Positions 28,925 through 38,356 of a stretch of DNA of 64,000 nucleotides are shown here, piece by piece. This DNA comes from a virus (taxonomy: Duplodnaviria > Heunggongvirae > Uroviricota > Caudoviricetes), in IMG/VR virus record IMGVR_UViG_2802429224_000004, positions 1-64,000 of that record; one strand, written 5' to 3'. The translations under genes were made by a program, and so were the position numbers. The notes beneath the pieces were generated by a model. The model did not search any database. It worked only from the letters and a program-made list of their open reading frames with translations, and was not told the DNA's origin. The stretch's first letter is position 1; every line of letters begins with the position of its first letter.

Positions 28925-31900
28925 TCAACTCTCGCGTAGTCATTCATCAACGGATCATCAATTGACAGTGGCACCGTGCGCATAACGCCCGGTTGAGGCG
29001 TGCTGACCTTTACGACAGTTCCCTGGCCTTTCGCCGAGTCTTTAGTGTGCTCTTCAATCCTGGCAAGCAATGAGGTCATCTGCGCAAACAGCCGCTTCGT
29101 TTCACCATCAAGTGAAACGGTATTATCAGCCAACTGCATTGTCGGCTTGGCACCGGAGCCGCCAAGGTCACTAATAACCTGTCCGTCTATCTGCATACGA
29201 CCGGTTGGTTGCTGCAAATCGTTGGCGGCAGTCGTCACCTGGGACGTGGAGGCTGGTTCAGGCGCATTATTTTTCCGCATCCCCGGCGAGTTGCGGAGTT
29301 TATCGAATAGTCCATCAATCCCCATTTGTGCGCCGAGTTGGTCAAAGTAACTTGAGTTGCTGGCCACCGGACGCGCCTCTTCAACTGGCATCGGAGTATC
29401 AACATACACATTGCCAGCTGCTGTTGCGGTCCCCTTCCCTCGTGCACGTTCTTCGAGCGTTCCCTGAACGACTTCCCGACGCATACCCCGGCCATTCATG
29501 AATTTGTTGACCAGATCGTTAACGCCAACAGCATTGCCAATTTTGTCTACCAGACCGCCTTTCTCAAACGGGCTATCACCAGGGGTAAACGCTAGGCCAG
29601 TAGACTGATCGATAACGGCGTTATCAGGTATCTTTTCGTAAATTGCTGGTGCGCTATGATCTACCTTAGAGCCATAAACGGCACCATTATTGAGCATCTG
29701 CTGATACCCTCTGACACGAGTAACATATTCGCCGGTACCTGCGACTACTCTCCCCTTATCAACATGCCCCATACCAGCATGATAGGCAGCTATTGCACGA
29801 CCCTGATCACCGTTATAACGGTTCATCAGCATACTTAGGTATCTGGCGGCACCATCAGCTGCTTTTCGTGTATCCATGGCATCAGCATCGCTGAGTCCAA
29901 GATCCTCCCTTGTACCTTTAGTGATCTGAAAAGCCCCAAGGGCAGATGAAAGTTTGTTCCCGTTTTTGTCTACTGGATTTCCAGTTCTCTGGCCTGCACT
30001 AGACTCTGCGGATGCAACTGCTGACAGAATCCCTTTTTCAAGCCCATACTTACGTTCAAGCTCATCAAAATAATCGGCATTGTCAGAAATCCATTGGTAT
30101 CCGGCAGCATTTAATTTTGGCAAAGAAACATCCTTGCCATTGTTAAATCGACGTTTATCTATCTCATATGCACTTAATGCTTCCTCCTTGCCTGTAGCAG
30201 GCTGGCCCAAGGCAGCATCAATTGTTTGTGCTGCTTTATTTCCTGTTTCTACGGCATTTGCATTACTAATCTGATTAGCAGTTTCTTTAACTGTTTTATT
30301 GCTATCTTTCGCCATATCCAGGGCCGCATTTATCACGCGGGCAGCAATATTAGTCTGTTTGGCATCGGATTCAGTTTTAGAATCAGATGTCCCCTGATGG
30401 CTATTAACCGGAGTTTTTAACTCCGGAGTGATTTCTTTCGCATTAGCCTCGCCGATCAGATTGGGTATTTTTGATACAATCATTGCCGCAGGGGTATTTT
30501 TAACGGCATCAACCGCTGCATCTAATGCTTTACCTGGTAAATTTTTAACCCCATCCCAAATATTACCAGCCGCCTCCTTAATGTGTTTCCCTGGGTTCTT
30601 AATGAAATCAATTGCACTATCAATTGCATCACTGAAAACCTGTTTCAGGTTATCGACAGTAAAGAAGTCTTTGATGGCATCCAGCTTTTCAAGCAGCTTA
30701 TTAGATGTATCGCTAAACCATGCTGAAACAGCATCACCAATCTTTGCTGTGTAATCATCGAACTTGGTAGAAATGGTGTCGCCAAGGTTAGAAATATATG
30801 TTTCTAAGTTGGTAATCCCACTATCTATGGCCTGGGCAATACTTTCCGTCGAAAATGATTGCAACATATTGCCGATATCCTCAAATCCAAGTGATTTGAG
30901 AACCTCACCAATGGCGCTGCTAATACCAGATACCAGTCCCCCCATATCAAGAACATTAGCTAACGTATAAGCGGCTTTTTGCTGGAATGATGGATCTTGT
31001 CCTGATTTAAGCCCAAACGCTCGACGTTGCGCTTCTGTATCATTCCAACCGGTTACCGCATCATAAATACCTCCAGCCACTGTGCCGACTAGGGGAATTG
31101 CGCGTAACGCCCCTTTACCAACTGCCTTTAATCCAAGTTTACCTGCTGCCCGGGCAGCCAAATCTCCGCCTTCATGGGCGAGAGTCTTCTTGCCACCACC
31201 GCGTAGCATTCCTACAAGTTTCTTTGCCCCCAGAGCGCCAAAAGCGAGTGCTCCAGCTTTTTTCAGCATGCCACGCCTCATTAACAACGACGCGACGCCA
31301 CCGGCCCCCTTCCCTAACAGGCTAAATAATTTGGACAGCAAGCCGCCCTTCTTTTTCCCAGTGTTTTTGGCTATCTGATCAAGGGCGCTGAGAATCTTGT
31401 CATTGCCCTCTTTAATTTCGCTGGTCTGATCCTGAAGTTCCTGAACCGTCCGTTTTTGGGTGTTAACCTGAACGACATCGGCACTATTTTGCGATTTACG
31501 CCTAAAAAAACCTTTTCTACGGCTGTTATCGTCATTGCCACGAATCACATCGGCAATAGACTTTCTGGCACCATTAAGCGATCCACCAACTTCTTTTGAT
31601 ATCCCGCCAAGCTCCTTCCCTGCGGCCCACAATGGACCAGCAACGGCATAACCTAACGCATCGACGGCACGAGTCTCTGAAGGGTTACCTATGCCTTCAG
31701 CTACTTTTGACAGTTTTTTTAATAAACCTGATTCAGCATTTAGACGCTCATCATCCTCTTTGCGCCTGGCCTTTTCAGCACGTTCAGCACGGGCATCTTC
31801 CGCTGCGGCCTTACTCCCTGACTTTCCAATAAAACGACCACGCGCATCGCGTTGGTTTTGGCTTTTTTGCGCACCGCCTTTTTGACCGAACATTTCGCGA

Positions 31901-33272: not shown

Positions 33273-33884
33273 TCAAAGAGAAAAACTAAAGCCCAGAAGG
33301 GAAGCCAAAGAACTTGAGGATTGGTTAAACGTGCTGTGCAATGCGAAGGTCATTGGGAATGACTTAAATTCCGTAACCTGATCCCGCGCATAGGTGACAT
33401 CGCCGGTAGTGACCGGAAATACCGTCATCTCATTTTCCAGTTTGGTTAAGCCGGAAGACAGCAACCGATAAATACGCACATTGAGCAAATATTTAGATGG
33501 TATGTTCCCGGTACCGTCAGGATTGATCACCCGACTTTTTGCCGTCTTAAACCAGTCCAAAACGAGGCCATCAACAGTGTCCCTGACCATCATTGTTATC
33601 TGCCCAGGCGAACGCTCCGTTGGCTGAAGGATATTCCCCCCGCCGATTTTAATCGTTTCATATTCGATGCTGTAATCGTGGTAGGTAATGTCTTTGGCAA
33701 AGAAGTCTGCCCCCTCCAGTCCATCAACTTCGACAGAGAACTGCCATCCTTGCGCGAACAGCATTTTGTTCATGATGATTGACGTCAGCTTACCAACTTC
33801 CCGCTCACCAACGCCGGAGCCAAATAATGTCGTCGTTAATGCCGAAGATACATAAGACTTTACTGAAGCAACATTAAGCCCCAT
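33273..33884 (-). CDS. tail tube-like protein
   Basis: 203 aa; synteny. Confidence 0.4.
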   Translation of the reverse strand: MGLNVASVKSYVSSALTTTLFGSGVGEREVGKLTSIIMNKMLFAQGWQFSVEVDGLEGADFFAKDITYHDYSIEYETIKIGGGNILQPTERSPGQITMMVRDTVDGLVLDWFKTAKSRVINPDGTGNIPSKYLLNVRIYRLLSSGLTKLENEMTVFPVTTGDVTYARDQVTEFKSFPMTFALHSTFNQSSSSLASLLGFSFSL

Positions 33885-33894
33885 ATCAGCCCCC

Positions 33895-34485
<591 letters not shown>

Positions 34486-34614
34486 TTAACCGATTCTACG
34501 AGTTGTCATTTGTTACCGGTCAGTCTACACATTTCAGATGCTGCGTTAAAAAATTCAAGTACTTCAAGTAGCACATCGTCATCAACACCCAGCCCCAAGA
34601 TACGGTGATAAAAT

Positions 34615-35592
34615 TCAAGCCTTAAGAGGCTTTGTGTATGTTCGTGTAATCCAACCAGTAATAAACTCATCCCCTGATTTAACCTGCACGTAAAGCCATT
34701 GACGATCTTTCTTATCTAAAATAGCAACAATTGTGTTTTTGCCAATGCATTCAATCACTTCACTATTTAAAGAAGGGCTGACATGTAATCTTACGTTATC
34801 ACCAGTTATAAACCTAAAACCATTGAGATCTTCCCACTTAATTTCTGTGTTTTCTTTAATTAATTTTTGTTTTGAAATTGGTGCATCCTCATATAGGGAT
34901 ACAGAATATGATTCTGTCTTGTGTATTTGCGATAAGATTTGTTCTTTTGCATAATCAGCAATGGCACCAAGCAACACTTCTGTTAAAAACCACATAATAA
35001 TAAACTGAAGCGGGTGAGGGAGCGCCTTAAATGAGTCAATAAACGTCGAACTGGATTTATTTAATCCTTTGTCTTGAACATCACTTTCGTTGTGAGATGT
35101 TTCAATAGCACCTTCAACATAAGCCTGTGCAATTGATGAAAGACCTTGCTCCATTGTTCTATTAAATAGAGATGTCTTTTTTTCAATATATTGATTTTCT
35201 TGTTTTTTTATAATATCTTTTGTTAAATCATCGTAAGTTATATATTCTCGTAAATTTTTAAGTGTAGCCTCCATACTTTCCAAGCCAGCTTGTTTATTAA
35301 AAACTACTATCTGGCTTTGTAATGACAAAGATTTTTCCGACTGTTTCTGAAAATTTTCAACATACTTACGGAAAAGATGGTTTATCTCATTCGTTTTTAG
35401 TGATGTGTTAAATTTTTTTTGAAGATAATTATCTAATATTTTTTGAGATGTTTTTTCCAAAACTATATGCAATAGATTTTGTTGCAAAAAATCAAGCGGG
35501 GTAGTAAGACCACCCAAACTCACTGATTTTGCTAAATTACTTAACTCGTTATATTTGGAGCTATTAATACTTGCCATCTTATTCGCCATCAT
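34615..35592 (-). CDS. membrane protein with C-terminal SH3b-like domain (accessory)
   Basis: 325 aa; very AT-rich coding sequence; coiled-coil-like N-terminal region, one TM helix (FIIMWFLTEVLLGAIADYA), C-terminal SH3b-like fold (VRLHVSPSLNSEVIECIGKNTIVAILDKKDRQWLYVQVKSGDEFITGWITRTY); 14-nt overlap with upstream gene. Confidence 0.5.
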   Translation of the reverse strand: MMANKMASINSSKYNELSNLAKSVSLGGLTTPLDFLQQNLLHIVLEKTSQKILDNYLQKKFNTSLKTNEINHLFRKYVENFQKQSEKSLSLQSQIVVFNKQAGLESMEATLKNLREYITYDDLTKDIIKKQENQYIEKKTSLFNRTMEQGLSSIAQAYVEGAIETSHNESDVQDKGLNKSSSTFIDSFKALPHPLQFIIMWFLTEVLLGAIADYAKEQILSQIHKTESYSVSLYEDAPISKQKLIKENTEIKWEDLNGFRFITGDNVRLHVSPSLNSEVIECIGKNTIVAILDKKDRQWLYVQVKSGDEFITGWITRTYTKPLKA

Positions 35593-36085
35593 ATTGTTTT
35601 AAACACCCGTCTTTTTTAGCTTCCTTGTAAATACTTGAAATACCATTAAGAGAGAATGATGTGATTCGACGCGATCCGATATATACATCCATGTTTTTTT
35701 CTTTTGTGGCTGACGCTGACTTCCAAAAAGAATACCATTCCCTACGATTTGGAGCAGTGTTTTGCGTACCAATATTAAAGCTATCCGGACCAACAATTAA
35801 GGTAATTACATCAGCTTTACGAGAAATTGTGTCGCGTGTAGAAAAATCAGCATTCTCTTTCCCTCCACTTACATACAAATTTCTTCCAGCGATATGATCT
35901 TCGGAACCTTCCCTTGCTCCAGCATCACAAGAAAAGTTAATTGTATAACCATCGTCATTGGTTGCAGAGATTTCTCTCCACCCTTGCTCACCTCCTACCG
36001 TCCAAACGGTAGAACCTGCCATTGCTGATAATGGCAGAAAAGAGGACATTAATAAAAAGCTATACAATGACTTATACAATTTCAT
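35579..36085 (-). CDS. secreted/periplasmic protein (accessory)
   Basis: 168 aa; N-terminal signal peptide MKLYKSLYSFLLMSSFLPLSAMA|GS. Confidence 0.5.
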   Translation of the reverse strand: MKLYKSLYSFLLMSSFLPLSAMAGSTVWTVGGEQGWREISATNDDGYTINFSCDAGAREGSEDHIAGRNLYVSGGKENADFSTRDTISRKADVITLIVGPDSFNIGTQNTAPNRREWYSFWKSASATKEKNMDVYIGSRRITSFSLNGISSIYKEAKKDGCLKQYDGE

Positions 36086-36173
36086 ATTTTTATCCTTTTG
36101 TTTTTAGATATTATAGGCATAGTCCATATTGTTAGATCCACTATGCCCAGAGAATTTAATATTATTTATTAAA

Positions 36174-36665
36174 TTATGGAGCTACACCCGGCCCCCTAGC
36201 TCGTTCTTCAAGCGTACCCTGCACGTTTTGATGGCGCATTCCCGGGGCGTTTCTGATTGAATCAATGCCATTTCTTCCAACGTCTTCTTTATTAACGGCA
36301 TTGCTCGCCACCAGAACGCCCCAGCTAGGGATAGCAAAATCAGGAGCGGTTTCGCATGCCTTTACCATATAATCGAAAGTGCTTCGATTGATCTCATTTG
36401 CGTCTGGATTTAACAGGCGAGAATATTGATATTTAGCATTTTCGTTGGTTGCGACTTTATACAGTTCTTGCTGCACCATCGCTTCAGAAAGTTTAAGACG
36501 TTTCATGTCTGAAAGTAACTTCTTGCGCATGGATTCGTCTTGGCTGACAGCAAAGCCGTAAACGTGCCCAAGGTATTTCGTGTAGTCGGTACAAATCGCC
36601 TTTACACTTGATGCTGCATTAACAGTCCCAGCCATAAATAATAACGGTAGTAATAGTTTTCTCAT
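36174..36665 (-). CDS. secreted/periplasmic protein with Sit-like C-terminal peptide (accessory)
   Basis: 163 aa; signal peptide MRKLLLPLLFMAGTVNA|AS; last ~25 aa (NAPGMRHQNVQGTLEERARGPG) and their DNA are homologous to an internal segment of sit (~29430-29520); gaggt RBS. Confidence 0.5.
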   Translation of the reverse strand: MRKLLLPLLFMAGTVNAASSVKAICTDYTKYLGHVYGFAVSQDESMRKKLLSDMKRLKLSEAMVQQELYKVATNENAKYQYSRLLNPDANEINRSTFDYMVKACETAPDFAIPSWGVLVASNAVNKEDVGRNGIDSIRNAPGMRHQNVQGTLEERARGPGVAP

Positions 36666-36761
36666 TATAACCTCACCTGCCTTTTAACTCATTTAGGGTA
36701 CATATTTTCGCCTTTAAAAAAAAGAGGTTATTAGATCCAGTTGTGTATTTATTAAACAGTA

Positions 36762-36778
36762 AGTGCTCTAATAAATTT
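36762..36778. promoter_or_regulatory. C1 repressor operator (Op51-like) of immI
   Basis: AGTGCTCTAATAAATTT, 16/17 to consensus; between accessory operon and icd/ant. Confidence 0.6.
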
Positions 36779-36959
36779 GTATTTTTAAGTCGCGAATGCT
36801 ATCTTTTCGCATCATATTGACCTTTTAATCGTTCAGGCTTATAGTTCCCGCCGTCGTAGCAAATTCTGCGACCGGGTTTAGCAGCCTGAATACTTACGCG
36901 GACAACCGCAGATTTCCGATATTGCGGTATTTTTGTGTCCGTAAACCACGTTACGCCCG

Positions 36960-37085
36960 AATTATGGTGGGGCGTGATGGGGAGGCTTCGGCCTGCTGGT
37001 TTCGTAAGTGCCAGTCTGCTAACCCCGTCACGTCCTGCCACCTGTTTAGCAGCGGGTCGCAGGTTGTTTATCAACTTACGAGGCC
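36960..37085 (+). ncRNA. candidate c4-like antisense RNA region (boundaries undetermined)
   Basis: Non-coding, structured region between the operator and icd containing stem-loops (aggcttcggcct UUCG tetraloop; ctgctaa...ttagcag); called by position relative to icd/ant only. Confidence 0.2.
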
Positions 37086-37091
37086 GTAACT

Positions 37092-37313
37092 ATGGTTAAT
37101 GCCAATCCTTGCGCACGCCCAGAATTCATCTGGCGTTTCTATTCCTGTAAAAAACACCACTATCACTTCGTTATCGCAGCAACAGAAGACGAAGCACGCT
37201 CTCAATTGCCTGACGGCCCCTGCATTTTTACTGCCCGTTTTTCAACTAACTCGCGCAATTCACTTAGTTACTGGAACCTCCCCTTCTCTGCCGACGTTCA
37301 GGGGGGTTTATGA
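37092..37313 (+). CDS. icd: Icd-like small protein
   Basis: 73-aa ORF whose stop overlaps the ant start (ATGA); position and length as remembered for P1 icd. Confidence 0.45.
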   Translation: MVNANPCARPEFIWRFYSCKKHHYHFVIAATEDEARSQLPDGPCIFTARFSTNSRNSLSYWNLPFSADVQGGL

Positions 37314-38356
37314 AAAAACCTCTCGTCACCCGTAATGAAATAGCCGAAGCGATCGCCCTGCATACAACCTGTATGCCGACACGGGAGATCCCCGGCGCAA
37401 TTGCCAACTATTTCATGATAACCAGGCGTTTTTATACCCGAACAGATAAGGCTGTGATCAACAGGCTACTGATAGCCGAGATCAGGGATTATTTGATTAA
37501 ACAAGGACGTCTACGTTACGCAACGGTGGCAGCAGAAATGAGAAAGGAGGCGCGCAGAATGACCGGTAATAATTTGAATGTTGAAAAACCAGCACCTGTT
37601 GCTTCAGCTACGCCATCACCAACTGTGAATGTTATCTCCAACACTGGAGACACAATCGACAGCCAGACACTGTTAAAGATGGTCAATGAAGCGCGTAAGT
37701 TATGTGGGGAACCAGAGGTTCGGAACAACAAATTCATCGAAAAAATACTCGACGAATTAGAAGGTGAGGACGGTTACACAAAAAGTGCAACCGTGCCGCC
37801 AGGTGGCGGTACGCCTATGGTTGTCATAACCATGACCTACAAACAAGCCCTGCGAGTCGCCGCGCGCGAGTCAAAAGCGGTCCGCCGTTCGCTGATCGAC
37901 AAACTGGAAGAATTGCAGCAGGCAAACTCCCCTACCCCATCGATCCCCCAAACATTACCAGAAGCCCTACGCCTGGCTGCCGAGTTAGCAGAACAGAAAA
38001 TGCAGTTGGAACAACAGCTGGTGGCCGCAGCCCCTAAAGTCGATTTTGCCGACCGGGTATCAGTGGCCAATGGAATCCTGATCGGGAACTTTGCAAAGGT
38101 CGTTGGACTTAAGCAAAACGCCCTTTTCTCATGGTTGCGCCAGAACGGCATTCTCATGGCTTTTGGAGCGCGCAAAAACGTACCGCGCCAACAGTACATC
38201 AACGCCGGGTATTTCACGGTGAAAGAAGTGGTGCTGGATGATGAAAATGGCTACCAGATACGGCTGACGCCCCAATTAACGGGTAAAGGCCAGCAGTGGT
38301 TAACTCGCAAGCTACTTGATGCTGGTTTGTTAAAACCAGTGGCGTCCTTGTCTTAA
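37310..38356 (+). CDS. ant: antirepressor Ant
   Basis: 348 aa; C-terminal ~130 aa form the antirepressor domain shared with the kilA product (PQTLPEALRLAAELAEQK ... TGKGQQWL ... LLDAG). Confidence 0.7.
   Translation: MKKPLVTRNEIAEAIALHTTCMPTREIPGAIANYFMITRRFYTRTDKAVINRLLIAEIRDYLIKQGRLRYATVAAEMRKEARRMTGNNLNVEKPAPVASATPSPTVNVISNTGDTIDSQTLLKMVNEARKLCGEPEVRNNKFIEKILDELEGEDGYTKSATVPPGGGTPMVVITMTYKQALRVAARESKAVRRSLIDKLEELQQANSPTPSIPQTLPEALRLAAELAEQKMQLEQQLVAAAPKVDFADRVSVANGILIGNFAKVVGLKQNALFSWLRQNGILMAFGARKNVPRQQYINAGYFTVKEVVLDDENGYQIRLTPQLTGKGQQWLTRKLLDAGLLKPVASLS

Follow-up and report, generated by a model that had tools for sequence, protein, structure and literature searches.

We show that the variable slot of this P1-like phage-plasmid (Punavirus) opens with a gene of the SimA family whose product ends in a segment resembling part of Sit, the protein of the same element that is both tape measure and injection transglycosylase. 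The window, by which we mean the whole 64,000-nt stretch of DNA that was analysed, is 94-98% identical to P1, P7, SJ46 and Ro157c2YLVW in the flanks of this finding. The slot is bounded by LPsit/pmgC on one side and, on the other, by the c4-icd-ant operon with its C1 operator Oc4; it equals the P1 sim (superimmunity) locus. The ORF discussed here is a SimA-family member and the first gene of this superimmunity / superinfection-exclusion slot, divergent from the C1-controlled c4-icd-ant operon. The features of the slot are as follows:

34493..34511 (-), late promoter LPsit, the fixed left edge of the variable slot (P1 annotation carried over via the 97% identical flank 33800-34514)
34523..36185 (-), private low-GC cassette of 1.66 kb, which replaced the simA 3' end and the downstream partner gene
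34615..35592 (-), SH3 protein of 325 aa, cassette cargo (C-terminal SH3_3, PF08239, 26.4 bits against a cutoff of 27; phrog_7086, E=1.7e-129)
35579..36085 (-), YfjT-like exported protein of 168 aa (phrog_3429, E=2e-69)
36174..36665 (-), gene of the simA family encoding 163 aa before its stop, in an allele truncated at the C-terminus, the family being ~215-222 aa long (from the ORF and its translation)
36180..36302 (-), Sit-like tail, residues 122-162, with the core NAPGMRHQNVQGTLEERARGPG at 36183-36251
36185..36186 (no strand), recombination breakpoint truncating the gene, where homology to the 215-aa allele stops; the VAP-stop (36174-36185) is private
36306..36605 (-), N-domain, compact and all-helical (residues ~21-120; C25 and C104 invariant)
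36615..36665 (-), Sec signal peptide as predicted by direct reading of the sequence, residues 1-17 (MRKLLLPLLFMAGTVNA, followed by ASS)
36762..36778 (+), operator Oc4 for C1, in the interval from which the simA and c4-icd-ant transcription units diverge (coordinates transferred from the alignment with P1)

Against phrog_3933, the profile of the SimA family (NCBI name 'simA domain protein'), the 163-aa protein matches with E=8.5e-114 over residues 1-162, which correspond to profile positions 1-162 of 213; since only these positions are present, the allele in the window is truncated. The protein carries the N-domain signature of the family, ICTDY..KYLGH..LSEAMV..IPSW.VLVA, together with 41 invariant columns common to 17 SimA-family members, and over 161 aa it shares 97.5% identity with gp35 (215 aa) of phage Ro157c2YLVW. 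The order of pmgC, slot and c4-icd-ant is retained in seven divergent elements, and a simA-family gene stands first in the slot, followed by a YfjT-like gene, in the window as in seven divergent loci, Ro157c2 and plasmid NZ_AP027490. This slot is one of eight hypervariable regions described in P1-like phage-plasmids (PMC9603915). Its promoter-proximal region (36640-36860) has a mean column identity of 96% in a three-way alignment with P1 and Ro157c2, and both Oc4 and a predicted promoter, PsimA, are annotated for P1 in NC_005856. Our scan for promoters and terminators returned sites no more numerous than in shuffles. The annotated start of P1 SimA lies nine codons further upstream (MSYKAGEVIM...; window counterpart 36666-36692, (-)). 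The upstream ATG of the window runs into a stop at codon 3 (ATG AGT TAA), so the true start is the ATG at 36665 (MRKLLL), which has AGGTGAGG before it, and the simA start of the P1 reference may be annotated too far upstream.

The predicted signal peptide has a basic n-region, a hydrophobic core and V-N-A ahead of the cleavage site, without a lipobox, and N16, A17 and S19 are invariant in the SimA family. In the AlphaFold2 model, pLDDT is <50 for signal-peptide residues 1-15, >90 for the helical domain and 40-58 for the Sit-like tail, which, judging from this model, is probably flexible. No fold or sequence relatives of the helical domain were found in PDB or BFVD, where the sequence search of solved structures gave non-significant matches only. 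One candidate identity, PTP-like phytase (PF14566), was rejected: it scores 26.7 bits against a cutoff of 27, the catalytic CX5R P-loop is absent, the sole P-loop candidate (C104-ETAPD-F110) has no arginine, and divergent SimA members do not match PF14566.

The breakpoint was located by comparison with Ro157c2YLVW, to which the window is homologous by blastn at 36186-37498 and again at 33800-34522. The cassette at 34523-36185 has no homology to P1, P7 or Ro157c2, and its GC content is 25-42%, against ~47-49% in the flanks. Because homology ends at 36186 and private cassette DNA lies beyond, the gene has been cut three codons after the Sit-like segment. Past ERARGPG, the 215-aa protein of Ro157c2YLVW continues with TNSPMGNLSPEELQEYNQ...LNLPYEW; the window protein ends in ...ERARGPGVAP and has neither of the modules that follow GMR(H/Q)Q elsewhere, that is, the coiled coil (...LNLPYEW) or the Cys module. 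The truncation thus removed the usual C-terminal coiled-coil part, which makes the Sit-like module look like a tail end, and the truncated allele retains exactly the N-domain and the motif. The same cassette arrangement occurs in 34 PLSDB plasmids, and no donor of the low-GC cassette was found among the fetched loci.

Several smaller observations concern the cassette. Its 168-aa protein is 50-53% identical to the PF27224 YfjT genes downstream of simA in three of the divergent loci (L004, L005 and L010) and 28% identical to gp34 of Ro157c2; the PF27224 (YfjT) model itself gave no match for any scanned protein and is probably missing from the Pfam copy used. Across loci L004-L010, a YfjT-like exported gene (PF27224) lies nearly always directly downstream of the simA-family gene, and its alleles form at least two deeply divergent groups, the window copy being 50-53% identical to one and 28-35% to the other. 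SimA and the YfjT-like protein look like the ancestral gene pair of the slot. The SH3 protein has 325 aa in the window and 389 aa in the closest plasmids, NZ_AP027490 among them; phrog_7086 matches only its residues 72-325, and the first 14 nt of its gene overlap the 168-aa gene. The window version is either an N-terminal variant or the result of an intra-cassette rearrangement. The spacer of 88 nt that separates the truncated simA from the YfjT-like gene contains, immediately within the cassette junction, a perfect inverted repeat of 8 bp (GGCATAGT ... ACTATGCC; loop of 16 nt) at 36119-36150, which may represent an RNA hairpin or a feature linked to recombination.

Proteins of the SimA family are built in a common order: a signal peptide, an N-domain with C25 and C104, a linker, a near-universal N(A/S)(P/R)GMR(H/Q)Q motif and then one of two alternative modules. 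The motif is followed either by the Sit-like extension V(Q/E)G(T/S)L.ERA(R/Y)G.GT..(M)GN(L/V), with a coiled-coil or Cys module after it, or directly by a Cys module. About half of the family variants have only the N..PGMR(H/Q)Q core, VQGTLEERARG being replaced by a Cys-containing module, which indicates that a full mimic is not universally required. A k-mer/HMM search recovered 28 clusters, all from P1-like contigs of ~90 kb of Escherichia, Salmonella and Klebsiella, and 1.84 billion representatives, searched exhaustively with a profile, yielded 11 matches, all of them the family itself or fragments of it, with one distant member (P0030). As far as such searches reach, the SimA family is an orphan. 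The contigs of its most distant members, P0030 and P0028, are only ~1.1-1.2 kb long and do not cover the resident Sit. Several 205-aa entries from Logan read-archive assemblies (P0002, P0004, P0005, P0007, P0008, P0016, P0017 and P0021) carry a frameshift inside the Sit-like segment or past it (...QWETSHQRNCKSITNGW...), and these are either assembly errors or real pseudogenes.

This family structure bears on the reference gene itself. P1 SimA has 52 aa, of which residues 10-49 are 92.5% identical to window residues 1-40, after which the sequences diverge into simB and simC. Since the match to P1 is confined to residues 1-40, P1 simA is an N-terminal remnant of a full-size gene. That the long form is ancestral follows from a Salmonella member (P0009), which is 57% identical and has the same C-terminal module, and from the length of the family profile (213 positions). 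A simA-family gene is present in 267 PLSDB plasmids: 84 carry it at full length, ~35 carry the 161-aa truncation and ~140 carry a 48-aa stump as in P1. The ~35 truncated alleles are annotated 'simA domain protein', the truncated ORF is intact in these plasmids and in a 153-member protein cluster, and the 163-aa ORF is uninterrupted in plasmids whose DNA diverges by 2-8%.

The other partner in the comparison is encoded on the same strand, in the gene order pmgC-tub-pmgB-sit that is also found in P1:

28921..32295 (-), sit, tape-measure / injection transglycosylase of 1124 aa, with an SLT domain (PF01464) at residues 742-847
29431..29610 (-), Sit residues 896-955, the block of highest invariance in the C-terminal half (D196 to G255 in alignment A2)
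29266..29325 (-), second, partial motif copy in Sit (MGIDGLFDKLRNSPGMRKNN), found by BLASTP and tblastn

An earlier note on this DNA had proposed that the C-terminus of the 163-aa protein (...NAPGMRHQNVQGTLEERARGPGVAP) and the DNA beneath it are homologous to an internal segment of sit (...NGRGMRREVVQGTLEERARGKG...). Both peptides are present and had been placed correctly, and at the protein level the homology is well supported. BLASTP with compositional adjustment aligns residues 122-162 with Sit 921-957 (21/41 identical, 51%; 38.9 bits, E=7e-8) and finds a second Sit site at 997-1010 (RNSPGMRKNN, E=0.005). Searched by tblastn against all six frames of the 64-kb window, the tail hits only two Sit sites, 29425-29535 (E=3e-8) and 29266-29325 (E=0.01). 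The Smith-Waterman score of 90 was equalled in 0/2000 shuffles (mean 31.5, sd 4.3, max 62), and the Sit-family PHROG profile phrog_2533 provides an independent match to the tail at positions 929-963 (E=3e-5; E=1.2e-7 for the 215-aa homolog). Where the Sit-like extension is present, the correspondence between SimA and Sit reaches ~45 residues (VQG(T/S)L.ERA(R/Y)G.GT...GN(L/V)), and the same correspondence appears in every divergent pair examined. A motif-only profile search for other carriers, run on a small candidate set, returned only Sit and SimA fragments. The match to phrog_2533 is limited to positions 929-963 of 1130 and the protein has no SLT domain; it is best described as having a module in common with Sit yet standing outside the Sit family. 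For the DNA, the claim holds only in part: pairwise alignment does find a best local match of 48 nt at 75% identity (36199-36246 against 29444-29491), but similarity at this level is weak. Within the identical VQGTLEERARG block, 6/11 codons differ and 6/6 of these differences are synonymous.

The segment of Sit that is matched belongs to the most conserved part of its C-terminal half. Alignment A2, which comprises 15 Sit C-terminal regions of 45-97% identity, gives D..TGLAFTPG..PF.KGGL.D..G...G..D...KF....GMR...VQGTL.ERA.G.G for block 896-955, and the SimA tail resembles the second half of it (Sit 921-957, 29425-29535), a short way downstream of the SLT domain. Our model of the Sit C-terminal region is confident for the SLT domain alone; pLDDT drops to 30-57 in the motif block, and contacts therefore cannot be inferred from the model. 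At this low confidence the block is modelled as a short helix, a GMR loop and a short helix, the same local pattern as in the SimA tail. A sequence search of PDB gave no relatives of Sit, and the cryo-EM structure of P1 did not resolve it (PMC12810830). In P1, sit is essential for plaque formation and simA, simB and simC are dispensable (PMC10695390). Sit residues ~956-1011 (window 29263-29430) form an insertion of ~55 aa with a partial motif duplication, DKIGNAVGVNDLVNKFMNGRGMRR vs DQLGAQMGIDGLFDKLRNSPGMRK. This insertion is found only in P1/E. coli-type Sit and is missing from Salmonella- and Klebsiella-type Sit, and its GMR copy reads as a partial internal duplication. The Sit SLT domain (29755-30072) comes in two distinct sequence types across P1-like elements, AFQITKGTREDLG... 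vs MFQFT.IAR.E.G... in A2; as these types differ between near-identical flanks, the enzymatic domain is a swapped module.

How old the resemblance is can be judged from its distribution and from its codons. The Sit-like segment is found in family members down to ~35-50% N-domain identity, and the Sit-like extension is present both in members that are 49-60% identical to the E. coli form and in the ~40%-identical outlier P0030. In distant family pairs, pairwise identity is 67% over the 21-aa motif, compared with 51% over the folded N-domain and 37% over the linker. Compared with the motif of the resident Sit in four genomes, the SimA motif has 62-70% nucleotide identity and 6-10 synonymous differences in 21 codons, and P0028, which has the most Sit-like tail, is 46-67% identical in DNA to any Sit. 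These values rule out recent copying or gene conversion from sit. The synonymous differences from sit within a conserved peptide point to selection on the peptide, and the resemblance between SimA and Sit is best explained as ancient and maintained by purifying selection at that level. Same-genome co-variation of the SimA and Sit motifs was not significant (permutation p ~0.36, n=8 genomes) and lends no support to co-evolution or gene conversion.

Seen in this light, several expressions of the earlier note need qualification. The tail had been called a copy from Sit; with synonymous sites near saturation relative to sit, it is not a recent one. The description of the protein as ending in a Sit-like peptide is right for this truncated allele, but the segment is internal in the 215-222-aa form. 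That the allele is truncated, and that its gene is the full-size relative of P1 simA, had escaped the note. Since it is internal in the ancestral form, broadly conserved and near-saturated at synonymous sites, the segment is neither a recent copy nor a marker of cassette acquisition. There is indeed a breakpoint just after it, at 36185/36186, but the segment itself predates that event, and the alignments indicate that the term recombination scar applies to the truncation point only. Homologs, which the note had suggested consulting, carry the segment across Escherichia, Salmonella and Klebsiella as well as in the ~40%-identical outlier, but about half of the variants keep the core only. Taken jointly, the descriptive part of this account (SimA-family identity; a Sec signal peptide, helical domain and flexible tail; a Sit-homologous module; an ancient and selected resemblance; truncation by a cassette) is in our judgement very probably correct.

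What the segment does is a matter for more cautious wording. It is tempting to hypothesize that the SimA-family protein would be made in the lysogen, as the P1 annotation suggests, and exported to the periplasm, where its tail would mimic the Sit segment. There the tail could occupy a host or phage partner needed by the ejected Sit of an incoming P1-like phage, or could instead co-assemble with that Sit; either route would interfere with DNA injection and so produce superinfection exclusion. This reading draws on the position in the sim locus, the signal peptide, the flexible tail, the constraint on the motif and the match to the most invariant block of Sit. Periplasmic mimicry of Sit that interferes with injection by P1-like phages is, on these grounds, a plausible mechanism of exclusion that we would stop short of calling probable. 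The wider proposal, that the SimA family as a whole consists of periplasmic mimics of a tape-measure segment, which exclude P1-like phages by competing for or poisoning an interaction of the ejected Sit and represent a type of decoy not described before, is more doubtful. Evidence from the exclusion locus of P1 runs against both, as P1 has only the SimA stump and exclusion there is assigned to SimC; the truncated allele of the window could, in addition, be partly disabled. The many family members that have only the GMR core, and the lack of significant co-variation within genomes, also weaken the decoy idea.

The shared segment might also have arisen or persisted for reasons other than a decoy. 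It could serve as a common docking, localisation or processing tag that brings Sit and SimA to the same place, recognised by, for example, a periplasmic chaperone, a protease, a peptidoglycan feature or a membrane site, with the helical domain carrying out envelope modification or another lysogenic-conversion job. We regard this account, including its division of labour, as unlikely, though as the main rival to mimicry it is well worth keeping in view. What is universally conserved is the short N..PGMR(H/Q)Q core with interchangeable modules, as is typical of a short linear recognition motif; P1-lineage Sit has this core twice; the two motifs do not co-vary within genomes; and the other genes of the slot encode assorted exported or envelope proteins (YfjT-like, a lipoprotein, DUF5384). 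A similarity that extends up to ~45 aa nevertheless exceeds the needs of a simple tag, the sim-locus position favours exclusion, and any common periplasmic binding site would in practice also compete with incoming Sit.

No function would be required if the segment were left over from an old sit-simA recombination and the truncated gene of the window were a decaying by-product of cassette exchange without a role. The conservation of the motif tells against such a neutral relic, since over deep divergence the motif is better conserved than the folded domain, many changes relative to sit are synonymous (6/6 of the differing codons in VQGTLEERARG), the segment is internal in the ancestral 215-222-aa form common to the E. 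coli and Salmonella lineages, and the 163-aa ORF remains intact over plasmids 2-8% apart in DNA. We therefore consider decay improbable, even though the breakpoint falls three codons past the segment, the slot is known as hypervariable (PMC9603915), ~140 plasmids and P1 retain only the 48-aa stump, the sim genes are non-essential (PMC10695390) and public assemblies contain several versions with frameshifts. That a short tail resembles a long, low-complexity tape-measure protein by chance or through composition has a negligible probability in our view: no more than ~41 aa are matched and Sit is a long protein with much G, A and K, but E=7e-8 was obtained with compositional adjustment, 0/2000 shuffles reached the score, and the match recurs at the same Sit positions with an independent profile and in every divergent pair examined.

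Interference with injection through mimicry of Sit, the reading that we prefer, can be set beside known systems. The closest by position is the P1 sim locus (simA, simB, simC), which occupies the same slot between LPsit/pmgC and Oc4/c4-icd-ant and has the same promoter-proximal region, 96% identical in the three-way alignment with P1 and Ro157c2. It differs in that P1 SimA is a 52-aa stump with neither the helical domain nor the Sit-like tail, whereas the window combines a full-type SimA, though truncated, with a YfjT-like and an SH3 protein; no SimC or SimB homologs were found among these three proteins. P1 SimC is a processed periplasmic protein, and Kliem & Dreiseikelmann 1989 and Maillou & Dreiseikelmann 1990 reportedly assigned the P1 exclusion phenotype to it. 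The block imposed by the P1 Sim system falls between adsorption and DNA entry.

Exclusion proteins of other phages offer partial parallels. Spackle (gp61.3) of T4 is a superinfection-exclusion protein of the periplasm and inhibits gp5, the tail lysozyme (PMC7677548, PMC7650644). Like the protein described here, it is a small, signal-peptide-bearing, helical phage protein, and its target is a cell-wall-degrading injection component of an incoming relative, as may be the case here. It binds an enzyme domain via its folded body, in contrast to a flexible tail that resembles a non-enzymatic segment of Sit, and neither sequence nor fold similarity between Spackle and SimA was detected. Ltp of Streptococcus phage TP-J34 is a lipoprotein that acts in exclusion and targets the tape-measure protein (Bebeacua et al. 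2013, as it appears among the references of PMC3952083). The likeness lies in a prophage-encoded extracytoplasmic exclusion factor tied functionally to an incoming tape-measure protein, a role that is a candidate one here; Ltp differs in being lipid-anchored, in its helix-turn-helix repeat domains and in its Gram-positive host, and it has no homology to the TMP. No similarity between Ltp and the SimA-family protein was detectable, and comparison with solved structures revealed no fold similarity that would make the latter Spackle-like or Ltp-like.

Cumby et al. 2012/2015 are said to have described gp15 of HK97 as an inner-membrane exclusion protein that keeps the genome from entering and whose escape mutants map to tape-measure or ejection proteins. 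SieA of P22 is likewise an inner-membrane exclusion protein, which blocks genome entry and whose escape mutants map to tape-measure or ejection proteins (PMC10883804). Exclusion at the injection step, with specificity coming from an injected tail or ejection protein, would be common to both and, as a candidate, to the system described here; both are integral membrane proteins and not target mimics, unlike a predicted soluble periplasmic protein with a segment resembling a TMP. None of Spackle, Ltp, HK97 gp15 and SieA is homologous or structurally similar to the SimA-family protein, and none mimics its target.

We found no paper in the literature searched that notes a Sit-like segment in SimA-type proteins or describes P1 simA as a remnant. 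We present the SimA-family protein as a candidate exclusion factor of the periplasm, unusual for its mimicry feature. If the reading holds, decoy-type exclusion by mimicry of an injection protein would be a new mechanism, and the mimicked peptide of 25-45 aa would offer a direct probe or bait for the periplasmic or inner-membrane partner of Sit. The P1 reference annotation is corrected in that its simA is a gene remnant, the full gene being present in ~84 sequenced plasmids. In Enterobacteriaceae, resistance genes are commonly carried on P1-like phage-plasmids, so factors that control their superinfection have practical relevance. A further protein of the same slot, Upf50.0 of P7 (DUF5384; L003 1643-2182), also gives a match to Sit, at residues 95-199 (22% over 105 aa, E=6e-4 with uncorrected composition), which is probably a compositional or coiled-coil effect.
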